In this document: one piece after another, positions 1,891-22,872 of the stretch
Layout: the number at the start of each line of letters is the position of its first letter
How positions within the stretch are numbered: the stretch's first letter is position 1
Origin: a virus
Direction: 5' to 3' (one strand)
IMG/VR virus record: IMGVR_UViG_3300009519_000012
Length of the DNA stretch: 25,745 nt
Made by a program: the position numbers and the translations under genes
The notes under the pieces: generated by a model
Database searches by the model: none
The model's input: the letters and a program-made list of their open reading frames with translations, nothing else
What the model was told of the DNA's origin: nothing

Positions 1891-2069
1891 GTGAACTACC
1901 CCCATGTCTAAATCCGGGGGCTTCCGGTTTCAACGGCATCTGCGTAGGTTGAGGACTTGCGTCCCAACTTACGTCTTACGTTGCCTCCACCGGCTGTAGC
2001 GCCAATCCCTGACGCCAGTATCCGTAGACCTTCGTCTCGGATATTCCTTGCCGCATTTATATCGCGGTC
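1891..2069 (-). mobile_element. tnpB: IS200/IS605 remnant A: tnpB 3' end plus right end (omegaRNA-scaffold-sized); no left end
   Basis: Minus strand translates as DRDINAARNIRDEGLRILASGIGATAGGGNVRRKLGRKSSTYADAVETGSPRI* (DRDxNAAxNI is the TnpB RuvC-III motif), then the RE hairpin CCCCCGGATTTAGACATGGGGG and the terminus TAGTTCAC. Confidence 0.88.
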
Positions 2070-3335
2070 TTAAGCATGGAACCCGAACGCATAAGCATTC
2101 TTGTTAGGCTGGCAGCAATACAGATTCGTAGCCAACTTCAAAAATACTGCATTCATGCTAGGATTGTCGTACTGCTGCGTTTTACGAGTACCAAAGTTCC
2201 AATCTGGATTATTCGTTGTGCGCAGTTTGAATGTCGATGGGTCAAGGAAGTAAATTGCTTCCGATGGCTGAATAATCGCATTCGATGGCAAATTCGAGTT
2301 CGTTGGAGAGAAATTGATTGCCGCTCCAGTGCTGTCATAGAACTGTGGAGTCTGATATGCGATTGTTGCAGTGTTCGATCCAATACCATCCTTCAACTGC
2401 GTATTGCCTGTCGATCCTGCTGATCCATTGATCGGAATGTAATACTGAGCTACTGCTGAAGGTGCCAACGGGTCTTTGAAAATCTCTGTTCCGTTGAAGT
2501 TAATGGAACTCCAGCTTAGATTGTGGTCACTATGCTGCGTATCGCGGTAATAGGCCATAAGAGACTTCGCAATCGCCTTGAAACCAAAGACGTTTGTGAT
2601 TCCCAACTTCGGCTTACCACCCCACATTTCGCACTGAGAACTCAATTGAATCAATGTATCAAAATCAATCTGCCCAGGCCCGCTAGTTGCAGGAGAAGAC
2701 GAACTGCTACTGTAGTTTCCTTGACCACAATAGACCGGAGTCACGTTAATCGCCTTGCCAATCGCACCATTGCGTAACTGTTCGCCATAGGAAAGATAAC
2801 GGTTCCCATAAAGCGATGTGTCGATAGCGTTGTTCAGCGCTTCATCAAGGCCGTTTGATGCCTTATGACGGTCATCACTTACCGTCGAAGATGAATTCTG
2901 TCCGTGACGGAAAGCATCCATCGCAAGCATCGTATTGATGTTTTGCATCATAGCACTCATGAAGATTGAATAGAGATTAAAGATTCTCGACGGACCAGAG
3001 TTGATAACTCCGCCGTCCGGTCCCATCTCCCAATCACTATACGGGAAGTTTGATTGGTATCCCTTCTCGTAGAACTTCAGTTTGTCTGTGATCTGCTGGC
3101 GCATCAACGTAACTGTCTGCGCAGGATCGATTGCAGAACCGTTAGGAGTTCCATACAAAATCGGCTCTGTCATGCCAGCACCGCCAAGATACGGTTCTGC
3201 TACTCCAGCATGGCGAAGTTCGTCAAGAAACGGAGTCCCAACGAAAAACTCGTTCCACACAACTTCATCACGAACAGACTCTAGGTTCGCGCTGTCAACT
3301 TCAGAAAAAGTTGGATCATTCTGCACGTATGGCAT
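2070..3335 (-). CDS. Major capsid protein (HK97 fold expected)
   Basis: 421 aa, positioned after portal and scaffold; N-terminal EVVWNEFFVGTPFLDEL and C-terminal LKLATNLYCCQPNKNA resemble phage MCPs. Confidence 0.85.
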   Translation of the reverse strand: MPYVQNDPTFSEVDSANLESVRDEVVWNEFFVGTPFLDELRHAGVAEPYLGGAGMTEPILYGTPNGSAIDPAQTVTLMRQQITDKLKFYEKGYQSNFPYSDWEMGPDGGVINSGPSRIFNLYSIFMSAMMQNINTMLAMDAFRHGQNSSSTVSDDRHKASNGLDEALNNAIDTSLYGNRYLSYGEQLRNGAIGKAINVTPVYCGQGNYSSSSSSPATSGPGQIDFDTLIQLSSQCEMWGGKPKLGITNVFGFKAIAKSLMAYYRDTQHSDHNLSWSSINFNGTEIFKDPLAPSAVAQYYIPINGSAGSTGNTQLKDGIGSNTATIAYQTPQFYDSTGAAINFSPTNSNLPSNAIIQPSEAIYFLDPSTFKLRTTNNPDWNFGTRKTQQYDNPSMNAVFLKLATNLYCCQPNKNAYAFGFHA

Positions 3336-3377
3336 GTTGTTTCCTTTCAGCTACTTAAGCTGCTTTCCTGATTTTAA

Positions 3378-4373
3378 TTACGCCGCTACTGTTTGGCGTT
3401 GTTCCTCAAAGCGTTTGATTACATTTTGTTGCGTCAATTTCAACCGAGCTTCTGGAGTCATCTTCGTCGGGTCTGGACGTTCTCCCGCAGAAACGGCTCT
3501 CTTGATTTCTGCTACCCTTGCCGATCCTGGCGGTAAGTGCATATCAGGATGAGAACTAATCTGCTCGGCCATCTTGCGTTCCTTGGCAGAAAATTCAGCA
3601 GCTTGGGCATCCATCTTTGCCTTCCACTCAGATTCCTTTTCGGCTGCGGTTTTTGCAGCAATCTCATCATCGTGCTTCTTTGCTTCAGCCGCACGATGCT
3701 CCGCTTCCTTCTCCGCAAACTTAAATGTCCTAGCCGCATATTCCATCGGGCTAAGTTTTAGACGATCTGCCTCAGATACAAGTTGGCTAGGAGAAATAGG
3801 AATCGGAGTTCCATAAAGTTGCTGATACTTCCAGCCAATGTCCTGAATCGTGTGTACTCCCTGATCCAAACGCTTCATAATCGCATCTTCTGAAAACGTA
3901 GGCGTTCCGGGAGTTTTGTTTTGGTCTACCACTGGAGCAGGGGGAGGGGTAAATACTGGAGCATTTGATGGATCGATTCCTAGTGTCCCAAGGTAACTTT
4001 CTCTCTGAGCCTTATAGTAAGCAGCCTCAGCTTTTGCATCTGCCGCTTCTTTGGCCAGTCTTGCTTTTTCTGCTTCCGCTTCCGCATTCGCAGCAGGATA
4101 AACATTTGCCCAAAAATCTTGTGCTTGCCTTACGTTCAGTTCCGCAGCTTCCTGTGCTGCTACTGCTGCTGCTGTTGCGGCTTCCTGCGCTTTCCTATCC
4201 TCCTCAGCCTTTTGTGCTGCCGCTAATGCCGCTTGTTCCTTTTGCTCTGCTGTCTGATAAATGTTTGTAACGTAACTATTGAGACCCGTGCGGGCCTGCG
4301 CATCAAGAGCATCAATCTGATCTTGCGTCCAACCGGATTGCTTCAAAACTTCTGCTAATGTCGGTACTGGCAT
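3378..4373 (-). CDS. Probable capsid scaffolding protein
   Basis: 331 aa with Ala/Glu/Lys-rich coiled coils and a Pro-rich linker, immediately upstream of the MCP. Confidence 0.7.
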   Translation of the reverse strand: MPVPTLAEVLKQSGWTQDQIDALDAQARTGLNSYVTNIYQTAEQKEQAALAAAQKAEEDRKAQEAATAAAVAAQEAAELNVRQAQDFWANVYPAANAEAEAEKARLAKEAADAKAEAAYYKAQRESYLGTLGIDPSNAPVFTPPPAPVVDQNKTPGTPTFSEDAIMKRLDQGVHTIQDIGWKYQQLYGTPIPISPSQLVSEADRLKLSPMEYAARTFKFAEKEAEHRAAEAKKHDDEIAAKTAAEKESEWKAKMDAQAAEFSAKERKMAEQISSHPDMHLPPGSARVAEIKRAVSAGERPDPTKMTPEARLKLTQQNVIKRFEEQRQTVAA

Positions 4374-4400
4374 AATTCACTATTCTCCCGGATTTCCTTG

Positions 4401-4691
4401 TTAAGAGTACGATGGCTGTTGACTTGTAGGCGTTGGTTGAGGCGGTGCAATCAATTTTGTCTGTGCCTCTCCTATTGCCTGCACGATCTTGTTCAATTCA
4501 GCAGCTATTTGAGGATACGCTTGCGCTATTTCCTGCGCTGCTTGACTCCACTTACCTAACAATTGTTGGATTTGATTTGCTGGACCCTGAGACGGTGGGC
4601 CTTGCTTCCCTCCACCATCAGGAGGCGGAGGAGGAGGACCACCCTGCGGTGATCCCCCCTGATCTGGCATTGGCATTGCATTCGTAGCCAT
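4401..4691 (-). CDS. Pro/Gln-rich hypothetical protein of the head module
   Basis: 96 aa; GGAG RBS; lies between portal and scaffold. Confidence 0.7.
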   Translation of the reverse strand: MATNAMPMPDQGGSPQGGPPPPPPDGGGKQGPPSQGPANQIQQLLGKWSQAAQEIAQAYPQIAAELNKIVQAIGEAQTKLIAPPQPTPTSQQPSYS

Positions 4692-4712
4692 GATTTCTCC
4701 GTTAGGGGTTGG

Positions 4713-4814
4713 TTACAGCTTTACGGCTGTCTTCTTGCTGGTGCGCTTGTGGCCACGGCCTTTTTGTGTGGCCTTCTTCAAATGACTCTTTTTTCCACTT
4801 ATGCGATGCTTCAT
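4713..4814 (-). CDS. 33-aa highly basic peptide MKHRISGKKSHLKKATQKGRGHKRTSKKTAVKL
   Basis: Below the ORF-track cutoff; strong RBS AAAGGAGAAACACC-ATG; fills the gap in the operon. Confidence 0.75.
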   Translation of the reverse strand: MKHRISGKKSHLKKATQKGRGHKRTSKKTAVKL

Positions 4815-4851
4815 GGTGTTTCTCCTTTGGGTTTGAGGTTTTTTATCCAAC

Positions 4852-4917
4852 AAAAATGGCTTGAGCCATTTTGATGGTCTCAAGCCACGCTGGTTCCCAA
4901 AGGGAGGGCGGTCGCCC
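4852..4917 (-). promoter_or_regulatory. Structured leader: two short hairpins plus a terminator-like stem and U-tract with an alternative pairing
   Basis: Hairpins GGGC-GACC-GCCC and TCCC-TTT-GGGA, then TGGCTTGAG...CTCAAGCCA followed by TTTTT; alternative stem AAAATGGC-TCAA-GCCATTTT. Confidence 0.5.
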
Positions 4918-4933
4918 GATTGATTCTTTTTAG

Positions 4934-4962
4934 ATCATTCCACTTTTTTGCTGTCTTGTCAA
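4934..4962 (-). promoter_or_regulatory. Putative sigma70-type promoter for the scaffold/capsid genes
   Basis: TTGACA-17 nt-AATGAT on the minus strand in an intergenic region. Confidence 0.55.
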
Positions 4963-4980
4963 GAGGTAAAATGACAAAAT

Positions 4981-5220
4981 TTAGATTATTTTGTCTTCTA
5001 TCCCTAATTCCTTCTTAAATTTCGCTGCCAAAACCTCTGAGACTCTGGTTTTTTGTTCAACAGTTACTCCCTGCACTCCGCCTCCACAATATACAACAGA
5101 CATTTTTCCATCTGTCTTTCCTGCGCGTACTTCATCGTGAGCCTCTCCTACATCTGTAGGGAGATCGAAGCTGGATTCTGTAACCAAGTATACCTTTTGC
5201 GCCTTAATTCTGAGTGCCAT
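4981..5220 (-). CDS. Hypothetical protein
   Basis: 79-aa ORF with GGAGAG RBS, directly downstream of the portal gene. Confidence 0.7.
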   Translation of the reverse strand: MALRIKAQKVYLVTESSFDLPTDVGEAHDEVRAGKTDGKMSVVYCGGGVQGVTVEQKTRVSEVLAAKFKKELGIEDKII

Positions 5221-5252
5221 CTTTCTCTCCTATGGTGTTTGATTTGTACTAC

Positions 5253-7361
5253 TTAGCTCTCTTTCACAATTGTTCTCGGAGTTCCACCTGCTCCACCTTT
5301 TTGTGCAAGACGAGGTTGTTTTTTACCACTTGGATCACGTCCCCCCGCGTGCTGCCCTGCCGGTCCTTTTCCTCCCTTGCCACCTTGAGGCTGTCCTCCT
5401 CCTTCCAATACAGATGGATCAATCCCCATTTCCTTCAACTTCATGAAAGCCTTGGCCTTGGCAATAATTGCCATGACCTGCAATTCTGTTTCCTCGTTGA
5501 AAAACTTTTCTTTTTCCGTCGCGCCCGGAGAATCTCCCCAGTTCGCTATGTCTATTGTTTTCATCACTGTAGACCAGCTTAACGGGGCACCGCTGCGCTT
5601 CAGTTGCAACATCATCATCTGACGCTGCATAGCCGTAATCCTTAGCAGCGTATTCGGCACAGAAACAAGCCTCAACTTCTTTACAAAATACTTTGCCCGC
5701 GTCAGACGATCATACATTGATGGTGTAGTGGGAAATTGACCACCGAATAATTCATCTGGCAAGTGGCTAGGAACCATATCGTCAGGATTGAAGTCAAACA
5801 TTTCCTTTGCTATATTGTCTGGCCCTACATACTCAATAAGCCTTCCTGCGTCAAACCATTGAGGAATAAGAACTTTCATCCTTTCTCCTACGCGCTTGTT
5901 GGCTTTTTCTATCCTCATCGCTATCCCCTTAGCGATAGGACCGATAGACTCCAGCATTTTATCTGCTGTATCGTTTGCAATGTTCATCTTCATGTTGGCT
6001 AGGTTTCCAACATCGTTCAATCCTAGTTGAGCAAGTTCTTTCTCGCCTAGATATTTTAGGTATCCTGTATTTTCTCCGGTTACTCGAACTTCTTCTGGAA
6101 GAAGAGATTGTAATGTCTTCCTTGGTTCACTCCCACCAAACAATCCTAGCCTTTGATCTGGTGCAAACATATCCCATGTTTCAATGCTCTTTCCTCCGTT
6201 TTCATCTGCGTTATATCCCAACGGAGGGTCCATTTGCGCAGAAAGAACCTGATCCATAAGCCTTTCATGCTTGCGAATCGTTGATTCAATTGAAGATACA
6301 TCTCCTACTAACGATCTTCCTAGCGCCTCCCATGCCCAATCATCTACTGTGTACTGAATAACAGGTATTTTAGAGTCCCAATCGTAGGAAGTACCGTCAT
6401 ACATCGGCTTGTCGAGTCCTGATGACGTGATGATGAGCCGTAGGTTAGGGTAGATTCGGCAATCTTCCACCATTGCAGGACGCATGTATGGTTTACCATC
6501 TCTCATCCCTCCAAATATCGGTTGGCCCAAAGACGGAACTTTATAAAACCAAGACGTTCCCGGCTCGCCGCATTGCATCTCTTTTCCAGAAGTATTGATG
6601 CGTATGTCCCTTATAAATGTGTATCTTATCTCCGTATAAAGATTTCCAAAACTGCGACTCTGTGACTCTCCTACGCTTCCATAACGATACATCGCAGCAA
6701 AATCCTGCCGCTGTGCTTGTATCAGTGTCTTGTAATTATTCCGTCCGACTGTTTGTAATTGTCCTTGGAATAGAGGAAAGTTCGCACACGCCTCGGCAAT
6801 CGGCATATAATCGTAAATTGTTACAGCGTAAGCATCTTGAACGTCATTTGACTTTGAAGGAATCTGGACTGGAACTACATCTAATAGTCCTAGAGCATCA
6901 AATTTCATCTCTCTTGGTCCAAAATGATACTCGGACGCAACTACTTTAGGCCATAGGTATCCAATACCCATGACCGTCGCATACTGCAAAACTTTCAAGA
7001 TTTGGTAGGGAAAATCAGACTCTAAATAAACACATTTGCTTACCTTTGTAAGCATCTCCGCCATTGCTTTATAGGCAGGAACATCTGAGCTAAATCCAGC
7101 AATTTCACGTACTTCCGCTAAAGTTGTACAAAATTTATTGATATTATATTTTAACTGATTGGTTACTAACGAACTTCTAGTCTTGTCTTTGAATATACCA
7201 TCAAAGACACGAAGATTTTTCTCAAGATTTCGGTAGCAGGCTTGACCAGAAAGGAATCCCTCACCCTCTTTGATTTGTTCCTCAACCCAAGCGATTTTTT
7301 CCGCGTTGGATGCTTCAAAATTCGGAACTCGCCATTTTACGGTTTCAAGTTCAGCAGGCAC
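5253..7361 (-). CDS. Portal (head-tail connector) protein
   Basis: 702 aa, mostly helical, located between terminase and scaffold/MCP; Gly/Lys-rich C-terminal tail; size fits long P22-like portals. Confidence 0.8.
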   Translation of the reverse strand: MPAELETVKWRVPNFEASNAEKIAWVEEQIKEGEGFLSGQACYRNLEKNLRVFDGIFKDKTRSSLVTNQLKYNINKFCTTLAEVREIAGFSSDVPAYKAMAEMLTKVSKCVYLESDFPYQILKVLQYATVMGIGYLWPKVVASEYHFGPREMKFDALGLLDVVPVQIPSKSNDVQDAYAVTIYDYMPIAEACANFPLFQGQLQTVGRNNYKTLIQAQRQDFAAMYRYGSVGESQSRSFGNLYTEIRYTFIRDIRINTSGKEMQCGEPGTSWFYKVPSLGQPIFGGMRDGKPYMRPAMVEDCRIYPNLRLIITSSGLDKPMYDGTSYDWDSKIPVIQYTVDDWAWEALGRSLVGDVSSIESTIRKHERLMDQVLSAQMDPPLGYNADENGGKSIETWDMFAPDQRLGLFGGSEPRKTLQSLLPEEVRVTGENTGYLKYLGEKELAQLGLNDVGNLANMKMNIANDTADKMLESIGPIAKGIAMRIEKANKRVGERMKVLIPQWFDAGRLIEYVGPDNIAKEMFDFNPDDMVPSHLPDELFGGQFPTTPSMYDRLTRAKYFVKKLRLVSVPNTLLRITAMQRQMMMLQLKRSGAPLSWSTVMKTIDIANWGDSPGATEKEKFFNEETELQVMAIIAKAKAFMKLKEMGIDPSVLEGGGQPQGGKGGKGPAGQHAGGRDPSGKKQPRLAQKGGAGGTPRTIVKES

Positions 7362-7427
7362 ATATACTCACAATCCTCCCGGTACACTGTTTTGTCCTGG
7401 CTCCCAAGCCAGAACATGACTAAACGC

Positions 7428-7456
7428 ATGATAAACTATTTTTTGTCAAGTGTCTA
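7428..7456 (-). promoter_or_regulatory. Putative sigma70-type promoter upstream of the portal gene
   Basis: TAGACA-17 nt-TATCAT; followed by a 10-bp leader hairpin at 7393-7416 whose G.U pair forms on the minus strand. Confidence 0.55.
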
Positions 7457-7466
7457 CAAAAATTTT

Positions 7467-8273
7467 CTATCGTCCGTTCTCATAACCCTCGCTGTGTAGA
7501 AATGACTCCCTTTGACGTTCCCAAGATTTCGGTTTCTTGCTAGACCACTCTTCCGCCGAACGAAGAAAATCACGATTCATATTATTCCTTGCGTTTTCCA
7601 TCAGTGTTCGCCTATGACGACGAATCTCATCCAATCTCGGTTCTTCAATTGCCCGTCTCCTCTCGTTCTCAATCCTGAGTTCACGACTTTCCTGCTGGCG
7701 TTGGAGTTCCGAATACTTCTCTGCCTCAAATACATTATTGCAAACGATCTTTTGTACATTTTTCGGAGCAGGACGATCTTCGGGAAGTCCGAGACTCAAT
7801 CTTCCGTTCCTATCCTTATAGTACACAATCTTCTTGTCAAGTTGTGCTGCCCCTCGACTCCAAGACTTCGGCCTCAGATCGTATGCCATATCCGATGCGC
7901 CTTGGGTAAAACGCTTCCATATATATAGGATAGCGTTCTTGATTCCTGGTCCGCGCATAGGAAAATCGGTCGTTACCATCCAATCCGTTGCACACCAATG
8001 AGTCACATCACTGATTACATCCTTGTTCTCTAGGAAATACGTCCCATTGTAGACAAACCAATTCCCGTCATGAAACCAGCAGCACTCCATCCTGCCGTCA
8101 TGCCATGCAATTACTTTTTGAGAATCCTTAGCGGGTACTCGTTTCTTGACACTCACCCACTTTTTAGACTCTTTCAATGCACGTGCTTGTTCCTTGCTCT
8201 CTTGCTTCAGCGCAGCAAGTTCCGCCTTGAGTTTCGATTCCCGTTGTTCGATCATTCCTTGCGCGTTAGGCAT
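7467..8273 (-). CDS. Hypothetical protein with a DUF551-like central segment
   Basis: KWVSVKKRVP...VTHW pattern typical of DUF551 phage proteins; the charged helical C-terminal half begins MAYDLR. Confidence 0.6.
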   Translation of the reverse strand: MPNAQGMIEQRESKLKAELAALKQESKEQARALKESKKWVSVKKRVPAKDSQKVIAWHDGRMECCWFHDGNWFVYNGTYFLENKDVISDVTHWCATDWMVTTDFPMRGPGIKNAILYIWKRFTQGASDMAYDLRPKSWSRGAAQLDKKIVYYKDRNGRLSLGLPEDRPAPKNVQKIVCNNVFEAEKYSELQRQQESRELRIENERRRAIEEPRLDEIRRHRRTLMENARNNMNRDFLRSAEEWSSKKPKSWERQRESFLHSEGYENGR

Positions 8274-8955
8274 TTTTCTTATCCTCGAAATTAGTATAAT
8301 ACCCTACATACGATTGCGTTGCCGCCCTCACCCATACTGTAGGATACTTCCCTCCTCCAGACGCGGTCAAATCGCCGCTAAGTGCAATGGAGTTAATTTT
8401 ATACCATCCATTTCTCACGGATTCTATGAACCGTTCCATCGTCATCGGATAACTAAACTTTGTCGTATACCAACCAGACTTCTCTAAAAATTCTTTTCTT
8501 GATTGATAAAACCTAGTAAACCCCATCCTCTTTAATTGGTGCTGCGTAGTATCTCCAGGAGCCGACACTTGCTCAATTACAAGCAATGGTCCTCTCGGAT
8601 CAATACATTCCTCTCCGTAATACCTAGCAATTTGTGCAACGATTGGAACTAACTCTACTGGACTCTGCTCGTGCGAAACATATTCCGCTACCTGTACGCA
8701 AGGTTCATCTATTTTTCCTACGCGCATCACAGAAATCACGGATGGGTCTACTCCAAGTCCATGCCCTGTTTCAACCCCTATACTATAATCGTATCCTTCG
8801 CGTGGTTCCTCGTAAATCGTCAAACCGTCTATTTCAAGTTTTCCTATCGCAATAGGAGAATACTCTTTAGGTGTTATCTCCGCAAATATGTTCGGCGCAA
8901 CCGCTGCAGTAGCCGCTCCGATACCTAAAAACTTAAAGAATGTTCGTCTGTTCAT
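8266..8955 (-). CDS. Terminase-large-subunit nuclease-domain paralog with an N-terminal twin-arginine (Tat-like) signal; probably catalytically inactive
   Basis: Likely start MNRRTFFKFLGIGAATAAVAP (ATG at 8955; the ORF track starts at 8994). Aligns by eye with the C-terminus of the adjacent TerL: IYEEPREGYDYSIGVETGHG vs VYEGPKEGFDYACGVDTADG, IEQVSAPGDTTQHQLKRMGF vs IEQVRGPGDTCQNQLKIMGF, VRAATQSY vs VRAAAQSY. Confidence 0.85.
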   Translation of the reverse strand: MNRRTFFKFLGIGAATAAVAPNIFAEITPKEYSPIAIGKLEIDGLTIYEEPREGYDYSIGVETGHGLGVDPSVISVMRVGKIDEPCVQVAEYVSHEQSPVELVPIVAQIARYYGEECIDPRGPLLVIEQVSAPGDTTQHQLKRMGFTRFYQSRKEFLEKSGWYTTKFSYPMTMERFIESVRNGWYKINSIALSGDLTASGGGKYPTVWVRAATQSYVGYYTNFEDKKNA

Positions 8956-9035
8956 TATTTCTGCTACCTTTCTAGTGTGCAAAAGTGAGCACACTGGTTA
9001 GTTCCTGCTTCTTCCAAACCGCTTGCCCCATCCCC

Positions 9036-11213
9036 CTACTTCCAGCTTCCTATCGACACCATGTTTGACCTACAGACTCCCTCGTTGGGGTCTACTGTCT
9101 CTCTCTTAGGTACATAATACCTCTTTTGGCTACGAGATGCAAAGTCATCCAAATCATGCGTAGTAAAATAACTTTGCGCAGCTGCCCTTACTCGATCATC
9201 AAACTGTCCTTCTCTATGTTCCATCTTTGATTTGCTTCCTGTTATGTGACGCTCAAGAGTCTTGCATTCCTCAATCAACCACTTTGATTTTGGAATATAC
9301 CATCCTCCGTTAATAGCGTCTACAAAACTCGTCATAAGCATTGGTACGCTCCACGAGTTTGAGTACCATCCCTGTTTAGTTTTAGATTCATCTTTAATCT
9401 TTTTTGAATCATACCTCTTGGGAGCATGATGATAATTAAAACCCATGATCTTTAACTGGTTTTGGCAAGTATCACCCGGTCCTCTAACTTGTTCAATGGC
9501 AAACTTTACCCCTCGATGATCCTTTGTTCTTTTCCCATACCATGTAGCCATACAAGCCACAAATGGAACCATCTGCGCAGGATTCATCCTCTTGCTCGTT
9601 AATTCACAAGCCTGCTCGTCACATCCATCTCCTTTCCCTACTTTAGAAATAGACGCACAAGCTCTCTCTTCATCTTCTTTATCAAGACCATCTGCCGTAT
9701 CTACTCCACAAGCATAATCAAATCCTTCTTTTGGTCCCTCATAAACCAATAATTTATCCATCGTATCTTTCTCATTGTATTCATTGACTGGAAGCAGTGG
9801 AATCATATTCCACTTATATTTCTCTCCTCTTCTTGAAGTCCATTCTACTTCTATAACAGACTTATCTTTATCTATTTCTGATTCGTCTGGGTAAAATGTT
9901 TCTTCAATTGAGTGTCCAGTAATCGCATAGGCTTGCATCGGTTCACTACGAACCATCTTATGTCCTCTTCCGTCTCCTATTACCTCATATACATTATTCT
10001 CAACCGCCGCTATAACGTCTGGGTCAAATACTGTGTCATGTACTCCTGTCAATGCTTCATAGTCATCCGCCGCCATCTGAGCAAGCCAAATCTTTTGCGT
10101 GTGATTCTTACACGCTTGGTCATAATTAAATTGCCAAAACCACTGCTGTTCAACTGGCATACGCCAATCTTTACCGACTACTCTTGATAAATATGGCGTA
10201 TTACGAACATAAGACTCACATCGTGTTACGTGCTTTCGCGTTACATCCGAAATTACTCTATTCCAATCTCCCGGTACAGGAAACTTACGAACCCAATCAT
10301 CCTCTGGATAAAGATCAGGAACCATCACCCACGGAATAAAGATAGGACATAATCTGGATTTTCCTAAAGGCCAATCCTCTTTTGAGCTTTTCCATGTATC
10401 AGCAAGCCATCCAGTATTTCCACCTCCCGTTCCCTCAAGGACCATAAACAGATTCCTAGATGAGTGCGTTGCTCTTAACAATCCTTCCTCAATCGTCTTC
10501 TTCGCATCCTTAAAATCCGCCAACTCTGAGACGTGAATATTTGTAGGCGTCCATCCTTGCGCTAGACCCGTCGCCTGTGATCCTGATTGAATAGAAAGAA
10601 TCGACTTGTTTTCATACTCTCTAATATACTGAGAGTCTTTTATCGTGCTAGGAACCAACCAAAAAGGGCAGTTATCGTGAGCGGTATCAATAATTCTTCC
10701 AATCAACTCTGACTTCTTAGATTCTACAGAAGCCATAATTGATTGCGTGTGTGGAATGAATAACATACGATTGATAAATTTAAGAGCCGTCTTGGTCGTG
10801 ATGCCAACCTGGCGAGCCTTCAAGATAATCAGTTCTATAGATACTTGATCTTCGTCGAATTTTTCAATTACTGAGTCAAATATCTGCTGTGATAGCCTAT
10901 TTTGAAATTTATATATCTCTCCCTTCTCGTTGCACACGTATGCGTAGCGGCTCTCCCAATAATTTGAATCTAAACGACATAACACCTTTTCGTTTTGGAT
11001 AAATCTCTGTACTTCTTGTATCCTTTTCTCTGTTAATCCAGATTTTACTCTAATATACGTGTTTTTTGAGTTACTTGAATCATCTTTATATGTGATCTTT
11101 TTCATGTATTCTATGAAGTCTTGAACCTCTGCTAGTGAATGATAAACAGGTTCCCAACCTTCACTAGCAGAGAAGTAGTTTAAGTGCTTATCTATTGTCT
11201 TTCTTGAATACAT
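9036..11213 (-). CDS. terL: Terminase large subunit
   Basis: Walker A-like IILKARQVGITT, Walker B-like IHVSELAD, coupling motif VLEGTGGG, RNase H-like nuclease motifs CGVDTADG, IEQ and FDDRVRA. Confidence 0.92.
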   Translation of the reverse strand: MYSRKTIDKHLNYFSASEGWEPVYHSLAEVQDFIEYMKKITYKDDSSNSKNTYIRVKSGLTEKRIQEVQRFIQNEKVLCRLDSNYWESRYAYVCNEKGEIYKFQNRLSQQIFDSVIEKFDEDQVSIELIILKARQVGITTKTALKFINRMLFIPHTQSIMASVESKKSELIGRIIDTAHDNCPFWLVPSTIKDSQYIREYENKSILSIQSGSQATGLAQGWTPTNIHVSELADFKDAKKTIEEGLLRATHSSRNLFMVLEGTGGGNTGWLADTWKSSKEDWPLGKSRLCPIFIPWVMVPDLYPEDDWVRKFPVPGDWNRVISDVTRKHVTRCESYVRNTPYLSRVVGKDWRMPVEQQWFWQFNYDQACKNHTQKIWLAQMAADDYEALTGVHDTVFDPDVIAAVENNVYEVIGDGRGHKMVRSEPMQAYAITGHSIEETFYPDESEIDKDKSVIEVEWTSRRGEKYKWNMIPLLPVNEYNEKDTMDKLLVYEGPKEGFDYACGVDTADGLDKEDEERACASISKVGKGDGCDEQACELTSKRMNPAQMVPFVACMATWYGKRTKDHRGVKFAIEQVRGPGDTCQNQLKIMGFNYHHAPKRYDSKKIKDESKTKQGWYSNSWSVPMLMTSFVDAINGGWYIPKSKWLIEECKTLERHITGSKSKMEHREGQFDDRVRAAAQSYFTTHDLDDFASRSQKRYYVPKRETVDPNEGVCRSNMVSIGSWK

Positions 11214-13162: not shown

Positions 13163-13330
13163 TTAAATCCCCGTGTAGTCGTTCTTACGCTTCGGCTTTT
13201 TCCACATATCCTCAAGAATAGGACACATCTCTGGCGCAGACGAATGGAGTCCTTGTTCCTTACGTGAAGTCTCACTGTAGTATGGACCACAGATACGATC
13301 ACACTCGGATTGTTTTTCTTGTTGCGTCAT
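13163..13330 (-). CDS. Hypothetical 55-aa protein MTQQEKQSECDRICGP...
   Basis: Manual translation; the start codon lies inside the 94-bp repeat. Confidence 0.55.
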   Translation of the reverse strand: MTQQEKQSECDRICGPYYSETSRKEQGLHSSAPEMCPILEDMWKKPKRKNDYTGI

Positions 13331-13414
13331 AGATTTTGTCGCATGAAACCCACTGTTTTAACGGTGGGCTGAATGCGATTTTCCTTTCGTTTGACAAAGT
13401 AACGTAAAAGATTT
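13321..13414 (+). repeat. Remnant B: 94-bp exact copy of 16298..16391 (10-bp flank plus IS200/IS605 left-end hairpin and TTGACA box)
   Basis: Base-by-base identity over 94 nt; contains TCGCAT..CCCACTGTTTTAACGGTGGG..ATGCGA. Confidence 0.92.
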
Positions 13415-15855: not shown

Positions 15856-15867
15856 GCATCCTTTCTG

Positions 15868-15896
15868 TTTTTATACGCTTTGTTCTGGTTTGTCAA
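15868..15896 (-). promoter_or_regulatory. Possible promoter for the XRE gene
   Basis: TTGACA with TAAAAA at 17-nt spacing (or TATAAA at 15 nt). Confidence 0.35.
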
Positions 15897-15899
15897 GCA

Positions 15900-16307
15900 T
15901 TATTTTCTCGTGATCCCCCTTCTTGCTCTCACTAGTGCCTCTGCTACCGCATCTAGACTGTCCTCATGAAGACTGCTCAACCATTTATCTTCATCCATAA
16001 CTTTCATCACTTTTGGATGATCTCTCCACGTAACCTCTTTAGTGTGTAGAAGTTCATGAACAATAACAACTTCCAACTCTCTTCTGAAATACTCTCTATC
16101 TGTGTTCGTCCTATCGTTAGGATGACGTAGAATAATCTTCTGTCTATGACGAATAGGGCAAACCTTACAGTTTCCTAATTTATCTCCCATCTCTTCCGCA
16201 TTACTTATCACAATATCAAAATCGATATGGTCTAATCGGAGTTGCGGTTGCCAATAGGATAGATACTCCTTGGCTTGCTGGAGTTCCTTGTCTTCTAGTT
16301 GCGTCAT
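15900..16307 (-). CDS. HExxH (zincin-like) putative metallopeptidase
   Basis: ELEVVIVHELLH motif with downstream acidic residues. Confidence 0.65.
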   Translation of the reverse strand: MTQLEDKELQQAKEYLSYWQPQLRLDHIDFDIVISNAEEMGDKLGNCKVCPIRHRQKIILRHPNDRTNTDREYFRRELEVVIVHELLHTKEVTWRDHPKVMKVMDEDKWLSSLHEDSLDAVAEALVRARRGITRK

Positions 16308-16522
16308 AGATTTTGTCGCATGAAACCCACTGTTTTAACGGTGGGCTGAATGCGATTTTCCTTTCGTTTGACAAAGTAACGTAAAAGATTTACGCTTAAA
16401 AGATACGGCGGGACACGTCGGACTTTAAGCGCGTGGAGCGGATATGAGACTTGCCAGATGTTTTGGAAAGCAATCCGCGATGAAACGTGAATCCCATGAA
16501 TTTATTCGTGGGAGGATGTCAA
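16308..16522 (+). mobile_element. Remnant C: 215-bp non-autonomous IS200/IS605 mini-element (PATE-like) comprising LE hairpin, promoter, tnpB tail/omegaRNA scaffold and RE ending in TCAA
   Basis: LE hairpin at 16316-16355; TTGACA(16368)-17-TACGCT(16391); degenerate TnpB tail TAGHVG..ARG..KRESHEFIRGRMS; RE CCCATGAATTTATTCGTGGGAGGATGTCAA. Confidence 0.88.
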
Positions 16523-17166
16523 TTCTTTTCCTTTTCGATTTCCTCTTTCAATTGCTTCCAAAGAGTCTCCATGTCGATCCTCTCCTTACCCGGATACCAG
16601 CACGACGGTCCTTGCGCTTTAATAACCTTATTGAGTGCTTCTACAGCCTTCCATACTTCATCAGATAGTTCTCCATCATCCGCAAGATCGTCACACCATT
16701 CATCTCCGTCAAGTTGATGCAAGTAGTGAGGCTCTGCAATAACCACGTGCATCTCCGGCTCCTCACCGCGCTTCGTCGCCTCTTCCAACTGCCAGTACAT
16801 CTCATCTAACAGTTGATCTTTATCCCAAAAATACTTGTCCCGCGCATCATCAACTGTTGGCGTGTTGCCATCCCATTTAGCAACGGGAAGAGCGTAGTAT
16901 TTATCGCAATCTATCTTTGCTTGACATGATCGGCATCGAGTTTCTCCTTGGCGCATCACTGATCCGCAAGCGCACTTCTGATGAGTGCAACCTGACCACC
17001 TCGCCCCATGCTCACTGCTAGGATTGTCGCCGGGGTAAAATACTCCAGTACGAGACTTCCAGCCTATTTCAGAAACTTTCTTGGCAGCTTCATCGCTATT
17101 GTACATCACTACTTTTTCTTCTGACATCTGATCCTCTCCCATTATCGCACTAACCGATACTCCCAT
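16519..17166 (-). CDS. Hypothetical protein with Cys motifs (CxxxxCxC, CxxC); current stop codon contributed by element C
   Basis: 215-aa ORF; the likely start is MSEEKVV (ATGA overlap). Confidence 0.7.
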   Translation of the reverse strand: MGVSVSAIMGEDQMSEEKVVMYNSDEAAKKVSEIGWKSRTGVFYPGDNPSSEHGARWSGCTHQKCACGSVMRQGETRCRSCQAKIDCDKYYALPVAKWDGNTPTVDDARDKYFWDKDQLLDEMYWQLEEATKRGEEPEMHVVIAEPHYLHQLDGDEWCDDLADDGELSDEVWKAVEALNKVIKAQGPSCWYPGKERIDMETLWKQLKEEIEKEKN

Positions 17167-17540
17167 GCGTTTGAGTCCACAATCCTGCGCTTCTCAATCA
17201 CATGACACCCATACTCTGGCAAGCGTAAATCACGAATACGGCTCTTAACGCTGGAATCACAGACGAATACATTCTCTTTTTCTTTTATAAACGCCTGCAA
17301 CCTCCACGGAATCCACCACTCATGATTCCTCATCAGTCGCAACACAATCCCATTTAACGTTTTCCTATCGGGATCAGCAGCCTTGAAATTATACATTTCC
17401 TTGGCTTTCTGTTCCGCGTTCTCGTATCCAAAATCAACTAAGAACTCATATCCTTTGCTCTCAAGAAAATCAGCCGCACGCTTCACTTGAGAGGACACCT
17501 TCACGTTGTTTTCCTTGCACCACTGATTCAATTCGCTCAT
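17142..17540 (-). CDS. Hypothetical protein (possible winged-helix C-terminus)
   Basis: 132 aa; GGAGAGG RBS; the SVKSRIRDLR..YGCHVIEKRR...WEYRL pattern resembles small phage wHTH proteins. Confidence 0.65.
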   Translation of the reverse strand: MSELNQWCKENNVKVSSQVKRAADFLESKGYEFLVDFGYENAEQKAKEMYNFKAADPDRKTLNGIVLRLMRNHEWWIPWRLQAFIKEKENVFVCDSSVKSRIRDLRLPEYGCHVIEKRRIVDSNAWEYRLVR

Positions 17541-17775
17541 TTTTCCTCTCCTTCTCCCAGTGCCTTAGTTTCGCAGCACATGAGTTTGTACAACACCTGC
17601 GGATACCGTCTGGAATCCTATTCATTTCACGTAACTTCCACGTAAACAAATCCTTACACCATTCACAGCGAAGATTCAAGGTTATCAGCGTGTATATATG
17701 CTTACTCTCTCCGCATTTACACATCGTCCTTCCGTCTAACCGGAACCTCTTACACTCTGTGCAGATAGCAGCCAT
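17470..17775 (-). CDS. Cys-rich putative zinc-binding protein
   Basis: CTEC, CKC, CEWC and CCTNSC motifs. Confidence 0.6.
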   Translation of the reverse strand: MAAICTECKRFRLDGRTMCKCGESKHIYTLITLNLRCEWCKDLFTWKLREMNRIPDGIRRCCTNSCAAKLRHWEKERKNERIESVVQGKQREGVLSSEACG

Positions 17776-17776
17776 T

Positions 17777-17983
17777 TCAATCCCTCCGCATCAAACTGAA
17801 CTCTGACGGATTACCTTTAGGCCAATTCCAGTCACTTACATCACAGACACCTTTTTCTGTTAGACAAACATCACATCCACCTGTCCAGAAAGTTGCTACG
17901 TGTCCTGTCGGCCATAACGCTCCATTCTGTTCTGCGCAGTCATGACATATAGTGTAGACTCCTATCAACTTTTCTTTCTTCAA
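17777..17983 (-). CDS. Small Cys-rich protein
   Basis: CHDC and CDVC motifs; ATGA overlap. Confidence 0.65.
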   Translation of the reverse strand: MKKEKLIGVYTICHDCAEQNGALWPTGHVATFWTGGCDVCLTEKGVCDVSDWNWPKGNPSEFSLMRRD

Positions 17984-18213
17984 ACCTTTTCCTTGTCCTT
18001 CCAGTTACCCACTATTCGCTCAACACTGGCGGCGATAGGATACGTGCTAATAGTCTTTTTGTGAACTCGGCAGTTTGGGTCTAAAGACGTTACCATTATC
18101 CCTTGAAGATCGTAGGGTTCCCCACCGTTTCTGCACGAACACTTAGCCTCTGGAGACCACTTTGCAGTAGTCTCCAGTTCCTCTTCATCTTCGTTTTCGA
18201 TCCAACGTCTCAT
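17980..18213 (-). CDS. Hypothetical protein
   Basis: 77 aa with ATGA overlaps. Confidence 0.6.
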   Translation of the reverse strand: MRRWIENEDEEELETTAKWSPEAKCSCRNGGEPYDLQGIMVTSLDPNCRVHKKTISTYPIAASVERIVGNWKDKEKV

Positions 18214-19202
18214 AAATTGTCCTTATTAGAATTAAGATTCTCCTGTTCTAATTCATCACTATAGTTATCGTCACTTTCTTCATTTGAGAATAATCCATAG
18301 TTTATACTGGTGGCGTGTTCTATGTTTTTACATCCTTGTTCCCAGTATGATGTTTTTAATTCGCTTCCGATAAACCGTCTTCCTAGTTGCATTGCAATAA
18401 ATCCTGTTGATCCTACTCCTGAAAACGGATCGTATATAACATCTTTTGGATTAGACCAAAGATGAACACATCTTTCGATTAAGTCTAACGCCATAGGACA
18501 TATATGTCTTTCGTCTTGATTCTCTCTTGCGCATCTTCCGTTTAACGTGCGAGTAAAATCAATATCCATCCACACTGGAGAAGCGTATCTCCTCCATCTC
18601 TCATGAGATAATACCCCGTTCTTTGGTGGGTTTTCTCCTGAAAACCATTCTAATCCTTTTTCATGAGCGATAGGTTCCGCATTCTCTCCCGGTATTCTGA
18701 ATGCAAGGATGTATTGAGGAATACCAGCCCTCACCATAGATGAATCTTTGCAAAGTTGTTTATGCATCAATCCTATTGCTTTGGTTCTTGTCGCTTCTAA
18801 TAGTGGATCTTTCCACGCACAGTGTTCACTGTGGAATATAAATCCAGCATCTAAAAACTGCCGAATAATATCACCCCGAAAATCTTTTAATCCAATATAT
18901 CCATCCCTGCTCTTCATTGCAGGGATATTCATGCAATCTATTGCTACTATTCTCCCTTTTTTTGTGATCCGAAACAACTCATCTATAAGCACACGAAAGT
19001 GTGTTTGAAACTCTTCATCAGTCCTACTGTTCCCCATATCCCTCTCGCTTCCAGAATAGCAATATAAGTTCGAGTACGGGCAAGAAGTAACGGTTAGATC
19101 AATTGATTCTGTTGGTAAAGATTTAGCAACATCTACGCAATCCGCATTGTAAGAAACCCAATCTGTTCCTGTTTTTTGGTTTATAACTTTTGAAGTAGTC
19201 AT
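18210..19202 (-). CDS. DNA methyltransferase, N4-C/N6-A, beta-class motif order
   Basis: N-terminal catalytic-type motif TSCPY (SPPY variant) and C-terminal SAM motif IYDPFSGVGSTG. Start MTTSK at 19202 with GGAGG RBS; the track starts at 19223. Confidence 0.9.
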   Translation of the reverse strand: MTTSKVINQKTGTDWVSYNADCVDVAKSLPTESIDLTVTSCPYSNLYCYSGSERDMGNSRTDEEFQTHFRVLIDELFRITKKGRIVAIDCMNIPAMKSRDGYIGLKDFRGDIIRQFLDAGFIFHSEHCAWKDPLLEATRTKAIGLMHKQLCKDSSMVRAGIPQYILAFRIPGENAEPIAHEKGLEWFSGENPPKNGVLSHERWRRYASPVWMDIDFTRTLNGRCARENQDERHICPMALDLIERCVHLWSNPKDVIYDPFSGVGSTGFIAMQLGRRFIGSELKTSYWEQGCKNIEHATSINYGLFSNEESDDNYSDELEQENLNSNKDNL

Positions 19203-20662
19203 TTCGATCCTCCGACCAACCATTCTGGTATGTCTATTTCATGTTTAGGTTCGTAAGGAGTGACTTCACGAACTGTTCCTGTCAAGTTCAACCTAGTCAA
19301 GTCTTGCATATTTGCCACCATTTCATCGGCCATTTGATTAGCTTCTTTTTCTTTCCTCTTCAAATTTTCTAGAACATTCCCCTCTGTCGATGCAGCGATG
19401 ATATGTACGTGGACTGGTTTCGTTTGTCCAAACCTCCAGCAACGCCTTACGGATTGGAAAAAACTCTCAAAACTATCCGTAACTCCAACGTGAATCATGT
19501 GAGAACAACTCTGGAAATTCGACCCCCAACCAAAAATTGAAGATTTGCTGACAAGCCTATGTATACCACCTTCTGAAAATTCAAGAGCGCATTGAGCTTT
19601 GTATTCGGATGAATCTGATCCTGTTACTTCAATAGAACCGTCAAGAGATTTAGTGATTAGATCGCTCTCTCGATTTAGGTTTGTCCATATTAGCCATATC
19701 TCTTTATCTTCTTTATTAACGATTTCTACGGCTTTTTCTACTCGACTATCGACAGTAGAACGTCTTGCGGATAAACGCTCACTCATTGTCTCCGCTGGCA
19801 TCGCAAATAACATTCCTTCAGATAGATTGTTTACTTTTACGATATGTTCGTGGTAAATCAATTCTGGAAGTATGAATGGTCCTGGGTCATATCCTACGTC
19901 ACCAGGAGTCCGTATATTTACAGCCCAAGAGCAAACCCATTTCCAAAAGTCCTGTCTAGCGTGTCCTTTTAATCTCCACTTTTGAGTCTCCCCACCATCG
20001 TGAGTAAAAAACGTAGACAACATCTCGTTAGATTTCATTATTCCAAGAAACTCAGCATGATTTCCTAGTTCCATTGTGTCATTAGGAGATGGAGTAGCAG
20101 TTCCGCATAATTTATATGGTGTATTTGAAAATAAATCTATGAGTAATTTTTTGGTAACACCGTCCATCGCTTTCAAGCAACTTGACTCGTCAAGAACAAC
20201 TCCTGAATAATCAGATGCGTCAAAGTGATCTAAACGCTCATAGTTTGTTACGACGATAGAAACACCGTTAGATTCTTCTGAATTATGGCAGTATTTTACT
20301 CCTTTGATGCCAAACTTATCAGCCTCGCGTACCATCTGGTAGCACACGGAAAGAGGAGCTAGAATAATAACTGGCATATTTGTATGCGATGCAATAACCT
20401 CACTCCAATTTAGCTCTATAAGGCTTTTCCCTAACCCTGTTCCGAGAAATGCAGCCGCTCTCCCTAATCTCAATGCCCACGATGTAACGTCTCTCTGGTG
20501 AGGAAACATATTAATGTTTAATTCTGGAATATCGGTCAACCCTGAAACTATAGGGGTGTACCTTTTTCTTTCCAGAAATTTTTCATACTGTGATTTATCC
20601 ACGTACTCTCCCATACAACGTTTCACTTTCAATACTATTTCACAATCGCAGAAAATTGTCAA
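19199..20662 (-). CDS. SF2 (SNF2-like) helicase/ATPase
   Basis: Motif I FLGTGLGKS, motif II VVLDESS, motif III GTATP, motif VI QSVRRCWRFGQ; the start may be 20614 (MGEYV). Confidence 0.9.
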   Translation of the reverse strand: MTIFCDCEIVLKVKRCMGEYVDKSQYEKFLERKRYTPIVSGLTDIPELNINMFPHQRDVTSWALRLGRAAAFLGTGLGKSLIELNWSEVIASHTNMPVIILAPLSVCYQMVREADKFGIKGVKYCHNSEESNGVSIVVTNYERLDHFDASDYSGVVLDESSCLKAMDGVTKKLLIDLFSNTPYKLCGTATPSPNDTMELGNHAEFLGIMKSNEMLSTFFTHDGGETQKWRLKGHARQDFWKWVCSWAVNIRTPGDVGYDPGPFILPELIYHEHIVKVNNLSEGMLFAMPAETMSERLSARRSTVDSRVEKAVEIVNKEDKEIWLIWTNLNRESDLITKSLDGSIEVTGSDSSEYKAQCALEFSEGGIHRLVSKSSIFGWGSNFQSCSHMIHVGVTDSFESFFQSVRRCWRFGQTKPVHVHIIAASTEGNVLENLKRKEKEANQMADEMVANMQDLTRLNLTGTVREVTPYEPKHEIDIPEWLVGGSK

Positions 20663-20675
20663 GGTTTTTCTGCGC

Positions 20676-21167
20676 CTATTTTCCTACCCAAAACCGCGTT
20701 TTTTTGTATGCCGCCTTCTCAGCCAGCAACACCGCCGCCCCAGTGAAATTGATACGATTGAGTCGCCATACATCTTGTCTCATATCCGCTACACGTGCAT
20801 CTCCTATCTCAAAACTCATTCCGAATTTACCTTTGCGTATCTGCTCTACATCTTTAGGACAGTCTCTTCCGTATAGTATTCCTCGTACTACTATCCTGTT
20901 TCCTATCATCCTAGCTTTTAAGATGACTCCTATTTTCCTTTGCGCATCATGCCCCTCATTATCCATCCTCCGACATAATCCCATGCCTACAATCGATCCT
21001 AAAGCCTCTACTACGGCCTTGCGCTCCAGTAGTATTTTATGTCCTCTTGCGCCACTAGGAGCTTTATCGGAAGGCTCATCTACAAATCCTAGCACGCCAA
21101 GGAAAGGTAGCCTGTTCGGATGTTTCGGATACTTTGGTAATTCTACTGCAAAGCACTCAATTCTCAT
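20676..21167 (-). CDS. Prohead-protease-like protein (S78/DUF2213-type fold)
   Basis: GHDAQRKIG (His) and GMSFE (Ser) motifs in HK97-protease order, followed by FTGAAVL..KAAY. Confidence 0.55.
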   Translation of the reverse strand: MRIECFAVELPKYPKHPNRLPFLGVLGFVDEPSDKAPSGARGHKILLERKAVVEALGSIVGMGLCRRMDNEGHDAQRKIGVILKARMIGNRIVVRGILYGRDCPKDVEQIRKGKFGMSFEIGDARVADMRQDVWRLNRINFTGAAVLLAEKAAYKKTRFWVGK

Positions 21168-21375
21168 TGGATTCCTTGACTTGAATCTTTATGCAATCCG
21201 GCCACTTAGGGCACTTAGGAGTTTCACCAAAATGTTCCATAACGTACTTCCCATGTTTGAAACACTCTCCGCCTGCACGATGCTCCCCTTCGTGTCCCTT
21301 GGGTAGTACGCACGAAAAGTACGTTCCCCAACGAGGGATGAAACTGGCCGCGTACTCTCCGCATTGATCGTCCAT
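21157..21375 (-). CDS. Small Cys/His-rich hypothetical protein
   Basis: 72 aa; CVLPKGHEGEH motif. Confidence 0.6.
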   Translation of the reverse strand: MDDQCGEYAASFIPRWGTYFSCVLPKGHEGEHRAGGECFKHGKYVMEHFGETPKCPKWPDCIKIQVKESNEN

Positions 21376-21989
21376 TATTTAGCTGATCCCTTGCCGCGAT
21401 AGAAATCTACATTACGACACTGTGCGCTTCTACATCCACAGCTACTATAATGTTCATCCTCTTTTTGCCCACACGCGCAATATCCTGGTTTATTATACAT
21501 ATATTCGGATGTTGACAATGGTTCTGAGTACATATATCCACTATCGCATTTAGAACAGTTGCAATATATTTTTTCTTCTTTAGCTTCCTTGCCGCGTCGG
21601 TAGGCTTCGATAATTCGATCATTAACCTCTTTTTTAACTGTAACAGTGTTATCTGCCAATACAACAGGAATTCCTTGCGCGACAGGAAACATCAAACTTT
21701 TGATCTCCTCCGGCACTTCCGTTTCCGGCGCAAGGAACATACGGCGCACAGATTCCACTGCGATACAATAAGCATCATCGCAGGGGAACTTACCGCGATC
21801 TTTCCGAGCGGCGTATACATTGTCCACGATGAGCCTGAATGAGCTAGTTCCAAGCGCATCACTCAGCCAGCGCAAAGCCGCTTCGAGAATCTTATTGGTG
21901 ATAACTGCGCCGTTTTCTCTCCAGTTTTTGTCATACGCAGCCTTCGCCACCTCTAGCATCCCATTAGGAACTACAATCTTGTCGCTCAT
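21375..21989 (-). CDS. Hypothetical protein with a C-terminal Cys-rich region
   Basis: 204 aa; AAGGAG RBS. Confidence 0.7.
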   Translation of the reverse strand: MSDKIVVPNGMLEVAKAAYDKNWRENGAVITNKILEAALRWLSDALGTSSFRLIVDNVYAARKDRGKFPCDDAYCIAVESVRRMFLAPETEVPEEIKSLMFPVAQGIPVVLADNTVTVKKEVNDRIIEAYRRGKEAKEEKIYCNCSKCDSGYMYSEPLSTSEYMYNKPGYCACGQKEDEHYSSCGCRSAQCRNVDFYRGKGSAK

Positions 21990-22126
21990 TTGCTCTCCTT
22001 GGTTTTCATATTAGGCTTTTCAACTTTCTCAGGAATTAGCCTTGTAGCAAGACAAAGGACGCATTTCTGCGTTGGGAAGAATACTCCAAAAGTACGCCAA
22101 TCGTGTTTGCATATATTGTCGCTCAA
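21986..22126 (-). CDS. 46-aa hypothetical protein (TTG start, ...ICKHDW...KCVLC...)
   Basis: Manual translation; start and stop overlap both neighbouring genes. Confidence 0.55.
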   Translation of the reverse strand: MSDNICKHDWRTFGVFFPTQKCVLCLATRLIPEKVEKPNMKTKESK

Positions 22127-22701
22127 GCCGCCACCTTTTCATTCGCCGCTTTCACGGTATCTCTATTCACTCTCCTAGCCGCATCAGACCATGCCAACTC
22201 AAAAGCCCTACCACGGCTATCCTTATCGACATAGGAGTATTCCCTTGAAAGTCTCCTAACGATGAAACTTTCTGTTCTCTCTAATTTTACTTTCTGTTTT
22301 ATATATCCGATTGTTCCTTCGACAAAACCATCCTCCCAGTATTTCCGCTCTCCATGAACTCCAAGCATGAGAATCTTTCTATTATGGTCCTCGTACAACC
22401 ATACATTTCCGCGTTTATACTTCCTGTAAACTATCTTTTGGTTATCCTCTATCTTGGATGGTTCATCGATTCCAGATGTAACACAGATAGGATTTTTTGA
22501 CCACGCGGATTTGTACTCTTTCCAATACTTACGCTCCAAAGGAACAGGTATTTCAGAACACGAAATCCCTAACGCGCTCAACTCCATTACAGCGTCACAC
22601 GTTGCACACCGGATACCACGGTAATCACTAATAGGACCATCTCTCCTAATAAAAGGAGATACAGGCTCTACTATTGTTTCATGTTTACATTTTTCGCTCA
22701 T
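22123..22701 (-). CDS. Hypothetical protein
   Basis: 192-aa ORF with a purine-rich RBS. Confidence 0.65.
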   Translation of the reverse strand: MSEKCKHETIVEPVSPFIRRDGPISDYRGIRCATCDAVMELSALGISCSEIPVPLERKYWKEYKSAWSKNPICVTSGIDEPSKIEDNQKIVYRKYKRGNVWLYEDHNRKILMLGVHGERKYWEDGFVEGTIGYIKQKVKLERTESFIVRRLSREYSYVDKDSRGRAFELAWSDAARRVNRDTVKAANEKVAA

Positions 22702-22718
22702 CCCCGTCTCCTCTCAAA

Positions 22719-22872
22719 CTACCACCGCAGCACCTTCATCTCCATCAAAGTCTTTCGGTACTCACTCATTCCCAAAACATCGTCCATCCGTTCAAGAAAT
22801 TTTGACGTTACTATTCTTTTGACATCCTCCCCACGGATAAATCCGGGGGGCTTGCGCTCACTCGTCGGTCAT
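22719..22872 (-). pseudogene. Small ORF MTDE(R)IVTSKFLERMDDVLG... interrupted by remnant D
   Basis: Removing 22819..22861 restores a 36-aa open frame. Confidence 0.45.

Follow-up and report, generated by a model that had tools for sequence, protein, structure and literature searches.

The window studied here, a 25,745-nt stretch of viral DNA (IMG/VR record IMGVR_UViG_3300009519_000012), carries four pieces of IS200/IS605-family insertion sequences (IS), designated A to D, among the genes of a phage. PHROGs assigned a major head protein, a portal (5253-7361) and a large terminase (9036-11213), which identify the window as phage DNA. PHROGs also gave a DNA methyltransferase, and Pfam an SNF2-type helicase. 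All sizeable open reading frames (ORFs) of the window are located on the minus strand. According to both tblastn and the gene tables, there is no tnpA or tnpB ORF in the window, as the original prediction made for this DNA had stated. That prediction had also listed the four pieces. All of them proved to be real, but they are of differing kinds: B is a left end only and D a right-end hairpin only. The further statement that each piece retains ~130-180 nt of the tnpB 3′ end together with the right-end hairpin holds for A and C and does not hold for B and D, although D matches the original description in part. The best explanation of the four pieces is that elements of the IS200/IS605 family, most of them tnpB-only, invaded this phage on at least three separate occasions.

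Piece A at the end of the capsid gene

In the IS200/IS605 family, the guide RNA is encoded at the tnpB 3′ end and the right end of the element. Piece A (1891..2069, minus strand) comprises the 3′-terminal 53 codons of a tnpB gene, starting at the RuvC-III motif, together with the right end. Its translation, DRDINAARNI...SPRI, terminates at a stop codon and is followed by the right-end hairpin and then by TTCAC. The translation shares 90.6% amino acid identity with residues 343-395 of P0006, an intact 395-residue TnpB in which the domains PF12323, PF01385 and PF07282 were recognized. When the window was searched by tblastn with intact TnpBs, A was the sole TnpB-like stretch. Since it begins at codon 343 and has neither a left end nor an intact tnpB, A is not a complete element. 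The pattern ...GGAAGCC-hairpin-GGGTAGTTCAC is common to A and 17 family members. A target-adjacent motif for the A family could not be defined from pairs of copies, as the left-end boundaries were too inconsistent.

We used RNAalifold to derive a consensus structure from 18 sequences, namely A and the 17 family members. The A-family consensus fold has 29 pairs, with compensatory changes in 20 of them, and its covariation-supported helices delimit a structured core, reminiscent of a guide-RNA scaffold, at 1898..2017 on the minus strand (positions 53 to 172 of A). The predicted fold of A has a free energy of -69 kcal/mol and a z of -4.6 with respect to shuffled sequence. Rfam scans, run with both gathering and E-value thresholds, matched no relevant family. 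The original prediction had named fold-breaking mutations as evidence that would speak against it; in A, the scaffold is free of them, all 29 pairs being retained, and the inner stem of the terminal hairpin is broken. More specifically, seven changes are specific to A, of which two are synonymous, one is non-synonymous and four fall in the right-end hairpin region, one of these also altering a codon. Three of the four inner pairs of this hairpin are broken; the five outer G-C pairs are intact. The inner pairs are kept in other A-family copies, partly through covariation. The inner stem is the family-variable part of the structure and the sole part broken in A. Decay of A's transposase-binding hairpin has begun. 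It is plausible that A is still a guide-RNA scaffold. Overall, the anatomy proposed originally was borne out: the pieces are nuclease-less IS200/IS605 derivatives, and A, probably together with C, retains the guide-RNA-coding region.

Piece A adjoins the major capsid gene (2070..3335, minus strand; major head protein according to PHROGs). The TAA stop codon of this gene is followed by A at the very next base and in the same frame. At the junction (window 2067-2072), read-through of the capsid TAA would append 53 TnpB-tail residues to the capsid protein. The plausible transcription source that had been claimed for the pieces is upheld for A by its position and is not upheld for C, as described below.

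Pieces B, C and D

Piece C (16308..16522, plus strand) is a protein-less mini element of 215 bp made up of a left-end hairpin (16308-16391), a degenerate tnpB tail and a right-end hairpin. The right-end hairpin is followed by AGGATGTCAA, and the right end, ...GGAGGATGTCAA, stops at 16522 with a GTCAA terminus. The tail still resembles a TnpB C-terminus but is interrupted by stop codons; its fold has a z of -3.3. The element is antisense to phage genes, and the ORF at 16519-17166 has its stop codon inside it. A promoter candidate, TTGACA-17-TACGCT, failed a consensus scan. Exact patterns of the C hairpins found no match in IMG/VR.

When 16308-16522 was excised in silico, the flanking genes were joined by an ATGA stop/start overlap. 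In a relative, L088, the homologous genes are joined by just such an ATGA overlap, representing the empty site for C. Because the arrangement in L088 matches the predicted empty site, we conclude that C is a clean, scarless insertion. In its anatomy, C thus resembles the PATE class of mini elements, having both hairpin ends, no protein gene, a scarless insertion and a recognizable empty site. It departs from this class in copy number and transposase: there is one full copy, B is partial, and no TnpA is encoded in the window.

Piece B is a solo left-end copy (13331-13414) that has neither tail nor right end; together with 15 nt of flank, it spans 13316..13414 on the plus strand. This segment and 16293-16391, which corresponds to the left end of C and its flank, form a 99-nt direct repeat of 99% identity. 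The 15-nt flank common to B (13316-13330) and C (16293-16307) lies beyond the inferred left-end boundary. The shared 99 nt end at the ATG of two genes. As a consequence, two ORFs begin with the same ATGACGCAAC; the contig gene tables list only one of these ORFs as a gene. A transposase selects 4-5 nt of target, which does not explain a shared flank of 15 nt. It is likelier that the shared flank arose from a duplication that took in the flank.

Piece D consists of a right-end hairpin and the terminal GAGGATGTCAA, with a tail of ~15 nt, and extends from 22819 to about 22875 on the minus strand, where it makes up the 3′-terminal part of a 57-codon ORF (22811-22984). Its right end resembles that of an intact tnpB in the IMG/VR phage G407, described below. 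A candidate for a fifth piece, a 22-nt inverted match to the C tail at 20777-20798 (91%), lies inside an ordinary ORF and was taken as chance.

Related elements in this phage and others

We collected strain-level contigs by exact-protein look-ups. Approximately 40 contigs were 99.9% identical to the window and, including those that extend past both of its ends, covered ~47 kb of the phage, whose genome is not closed. These ~47 kb encode no TnpB of either the A or the C/F family. A further cassette, F (L148:8729-8925, on the phage-gene strand), was found ~8.6 kb beyond window position 1, downstream of a 74-codon gene. It comprises a ~50-codon tnpB tail that starts inside the zinc finger and a right end with GTCAA, and is 98% identical to an intact 392-residue TnpB, P0078. 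The right ends of C, D and F all terminate in TCAA and those of the A family, the P0006 type, in TTCAC, which confirms that A and C come from different elements.

Two of the strain contigs, L150 and L152, lack 959 bp that include F and three small genes, and the junction is an 8-nt microhomology, CGCTTTAY. Another, L151, carries an intact IS605 element (L151:60-1735) directly before the ATG of a 61-codon gene. This element encodes a 131-residue Y1 TnpA and a 379-residue TnpB, and its right end, GGTCAC, represents a third end type, distinct from the ends of C. Its TnpB is the only one seen in the population, is ~34% identical to the A-family TnpB, and has its nearest named relatives in Blastocatellia (Acidobacteriota; 64-65%). 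Invasion, truncation and deletion are thus all ongoing in this phage species, whose population documents IS200/IS605 invasion and erosion in a phage through the coexistence of intact, broken, gutted and deleted states. No empty allele of A, C or D occurs among the ~40 strain-level contigs; in the comparison of empty alleles that had been proposed, the relative L088, with its empty site for C, was the positive case. We also observed an in-frame length polymorphism: L139 and L141 lack 180 bp (window 21399-21578) inside the ORF at 21375-21989, which has 138 rather than 204 codons in these contigs.

Outside the species, megablast of the window against the phage collection gave no match. In IMG/VR, the nearest relative is L001, with 80% identity in the capsid protein, and terminase relatives from metagenomes were at most 66% identical. 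In relatives, the intergenic site downstream of the capsid gene measures 15-69 nt and does not contain A. As the relatives have neither A at this site nor C at its site, the insertions are specific to this phage species. One relative (L086:18435-18992) has a 558-nt insert with a ~180-codon ORF of unassigned function at the same capsid-downstream site, where selfish elements may preferentially insert. Another relative, G001, lacks both a TnpB zinc-finger domain and a homologue of the gene adjoining C.

We obtained full-length relatives of A by searching a large protein collection with its 53 residues. The 395-residue TnpBs that were recovered are located on phage contigs and are 90-96% identical to the A tail. 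The P0006 gene is flanked by small genes on one side and by the portal gene on the other, in contigs that are syntenic with the window, having the same order of terminase, portal and capsid genes. The DNA of these backbones is 66-69% identical to that of the window, whereas A matches the 3′ end of their tnpB with 90-91% identity over exactly 179 nt. Over its full length, A is 90-93% identical at the nucleotide level to copies, both intact and truncated, on contigs of other phages. With core genes at 66-69% identity, these values indicate an element that is far younger than the divergence of the phages and that has moved horizontally. The same TnpB lineage is intact, with decayed ends, in two further unrelated phage contexts (L190, L191), so that intact A-family copies occur in no fewer than three other phage backbones, where they occupy different loci. 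Broken forms of the family include a split into 108 and 282 residues (L130/L131), a 180-residue form (L129) and a 70-residue form at a contig end (L198). Judged by these sequence comparisons, the A lineage is an element lineage moving among phages, one tnpB lineage passing between backbones that have diverged to about 67% identity.

Corresponding searches among prokaryotes returned more distant sequences. Against one genome per prokaryote species, the A tail matched only cyanobacterial TnpBs, with at most 77% amino acid identity, and a DNA search of 400 cyanobacterial genomes, in which two candidates per genome were scored, yielded nothing closer for A and nothing for C. A host copy of the A lineage was found in neither set. 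The original prediction had called for a search for TnpB loci matching A or C; such loci proved to be absent from the ~47 kb of phage contigs, and cognates were found on other phages.

Searches with degenerate right-end patterns matched 19 stretches in IMG/VR. Six of the ten matches of the C/F type had no TnpB in the upstream DNA (158-1,640 nt). Several of the matches were mini elements with left end, tail and right end, two copies occurring in one 354-kb phage. Relics of these kinds are thus widespread in other phages. The IMG/VR record G407 (L197, L199-L202), which is 93,790 bp in length and 100% complete according to CheckV, contains, besides one intact 404-residue tnpB, no fewer than four tnpB-less tails that have right ends; two of these tails are arranged in tandem. 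This phage is a better test case than the window for trans-acting guide RNAs. The retained tails in G407 and related contigs range from ~55 nt to 540 nt and have no sharp common boundary. Concerning deletion endpoints, which were to distinguish function from erosion, the remnants were of mixed kinds, with B left end only and D right end only, and with tails of 53 to 180 codons in related contigs. The searches for remnants started from tails and right ends and therefore under-count relics that, like B, consist of a left end only. In a separate contig (L167:6787-8342), an older relic, a truncated F-family tnpB tail of 113 residues, comes 80 nt after an intact 377-residue tnpB that represents a newer element.

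Probable decay of repeated insertions and rival explanations

The pieces are probably IS200/IS605 relics, that is, ordinary decay products of repeated invasions. This is the null hypothesis of the original prediction, and it fits the data best. According to this model, the source elements would circulate among phages of the same habitat and, as family knowledge suggests, insert beside a short target motif. The phage would then delete most of the insert; the 959-bp deletion at 8-nt microhomologies in the population is a comparable event. The kind of remnant would be set by where the deletion ended, which may have left a tail and right end in A, a left end in B and a right end in D, and in C both ends joined as a PATE-like mini element. 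Piece A would probably be transcribed as a 3′ trailer of the capsid mRNA. Both A and C may have kept the guide-RNA region through youth or for want of counter-selection rather than through use by the phage, and would be carried passively. Decay explains the mixed kinds of remnant, the species-specific polymorphic pattern and the missing partner. It is also supported by the concentration of four of the seven A-specific changes in the right-end hairpin, where three of four inner pairs are broken.

Several observations weigh against this explanation. The scaffold of A has not visibly decayed: it retains 29 of 29 covariation-supported pairs, as compared to 26-28 of 29 in intact phage copies, although recency alone can explain this. 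Random deletion does not predict that A should start flush with the capsid stop and in frame; the match in frame is probably a coincidence, with one chance in three. The sequence TAAG is present at both junctions of A, for which decay offers no explanation. Simple decay also does not account for the 15-nt flank identity of B and C. Finally, A, C and D are present in every strain contig that covers them, a distribution that fits drift in a near-clonal population and also drive or selection.

The original prediction favoured a different account, in which the cassettes are an RNA-only homing or interference system that borrows its TnpB. Under this hypothesis, A, C and perhaps F would be guide RNAs acting in trans, loaded by a TnpB of the host or of a co-infecting phage. 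Phage genomes with the uninterrupted site would be cut, with the result that repair would spread the cassettes or that competitors would be kept out, all without a nuclease gene in the phage. Such activity has precedents. According to Meers et al. (PMC10055086), the guide RNAs that PATEs often encode would depend on a TnpB supplied in trans; standalone guide RNAs occur in effector-carrying genomes and function in trans (Altae-Tran et al. 2023, PMC10691335). The trans function of standalone omegaRNAs with compatible effectors is described in the latter study, citing Altae-Tran 2021. For bacteria, the concept of standalone guide RNAs and of PATEs dependent on TnpB in trans has thus already been published; our literature search found no paper on protein-less cassettes in phages. 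The hypothesis further draws on the complete, conserved scaffold of A, which directly follows the capsid gene in the sense orientation, and on the cognate intact TnpBs of other phage contigs, with nucleotide identities of 91-93% for the A family and 98% for F. Some phages, moreover, have kept intact tnpB copies despite the decay of the transposon ends, which suggests that TnpB is of use to phages.

If A were transcribed and loaded, its guide would be the flank after its right end, TAAGTGGAACTAAACAAAGG (1871..1890, minus strand); the corresponding would-be guide of C is TTCTTTTCCTTTTCGATTTC (16523..16542, plus strand). In 1.46 Mb of related DNA, the 16 nt after each right end matched only their own loci. 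The short intergenic regions at the site of A in relatives differ from the would-be guide, and L088 has, at the site of C, a guide-like stretch with an offset of 3 nt relative to the TCAT motif. Indels and mismatches distinguish the sites of relatives from both guides. Because the guides match only their own flanks and the sites in relatives differ from them, the data contain no cleavable target. By the standard of a standalone trans-acting omegaRNA, a motif and guide in a competing allele were absent from the contigs and relatives covered, and a compatible effector was absent from the window and the ~47 kb of strain contigs, the L151 TnpB being a distant protein with different ends. Nor did the prokaryote species set contain a close copy of A, or the 400 cyanobacterial genomes one of A or C. 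Other features argue in the same direction: A has no left end, so that it is not excisable and needs no restoration; F is dispensable; B and D are incapable of making a guide RNA; and the promoter of C is weak by consensus. With no cognate TnpB, empty allele or matching target in the population, homing by a borrowed TnpB found no positive support, and we consider trans-acting guide RNAs unlikely. If they nevertheless exist, RNA-guided homing would extend to protein-less elements and constitute a new form of phage-phage competition. The boldest version of the hypothesis is improbable; in it, protein-less TnpB guide-RNA cassettes would be exchanged among the phages of this habitat and would serve them for RNA-only homing or exclusion, with A produced at late-gene levels.

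Comparison with known systems points to what sets the pieces apart. Like IS1341-type tnpB-only elements (e.g. ISDra2), A has the sequence from RuvC-III to the C-terminus, a subterminal hairpin, a terminal motif and a covarying, RNA-like fold across the gene 3′ end and right end. Unlike these elements, A, known here from its sequence alone, has neither a nuclease gene nor a left end. Piece C shares with PATEs two ends of similar hairpins, the absence of a protein gene and an insertion that is scarless and whose empty site is seen in a relative, but it occurs as one full copy with a partial copy, B, has no cognate TnpA or TnpB that we could find and resides in a phage rather than in a bacterial chromosome. 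As in the OMEGA standalone omegaRNAs, a guide-RNA-coding module here has no adjacent effector or transposase; the OMEGA cases, however, share a genome with effector loci, whereas the phage contigs yielded no compatible effector. The tnpB of cyanophage A-1(L), which is identical to copies in the host (bioRxiv 10.64898/2026.02.14.705889), exemplifies the entry of such elements into phage genomes, and relatives of the window likewise hold intact A-family tnpB. By contrast, the phage of the window holds leftovers only.

It is likewise unlikely that the pieces have been co-opted in cis, with the A tail as a 3′ structure that would stabilize or punctuate the late capsid transcript and the left ends of B and C, located immediately ahead of two gene starts, as regulatory or antisense-promoter modules: the stability of A exactly at the end of the capsid ORF, the repeat shared by B and C up to two gene ATGs and the retention of the pieces across strain contigs speak for it, but no terminator-like site was found at A, relatives cope with 15-69 nt and no such structure at the site, the species-specific, recent pieces do not support long-term retention, and the promoter-like motif of the left end, antisense to phage genes, failed the consensus scan.

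Two minor features were noted near the right edge of the window. The contig gene tables contain a precomputed Pfam match to PF25187 (Acb3) for the 226-residue product of the gene at 24925-25605 (minus strand). At 25693-25740, a 12-nt sequence, ACCCCGACCGCG, is repeated in tandem in ~4 copies, and many contigs of this phage break nearby.

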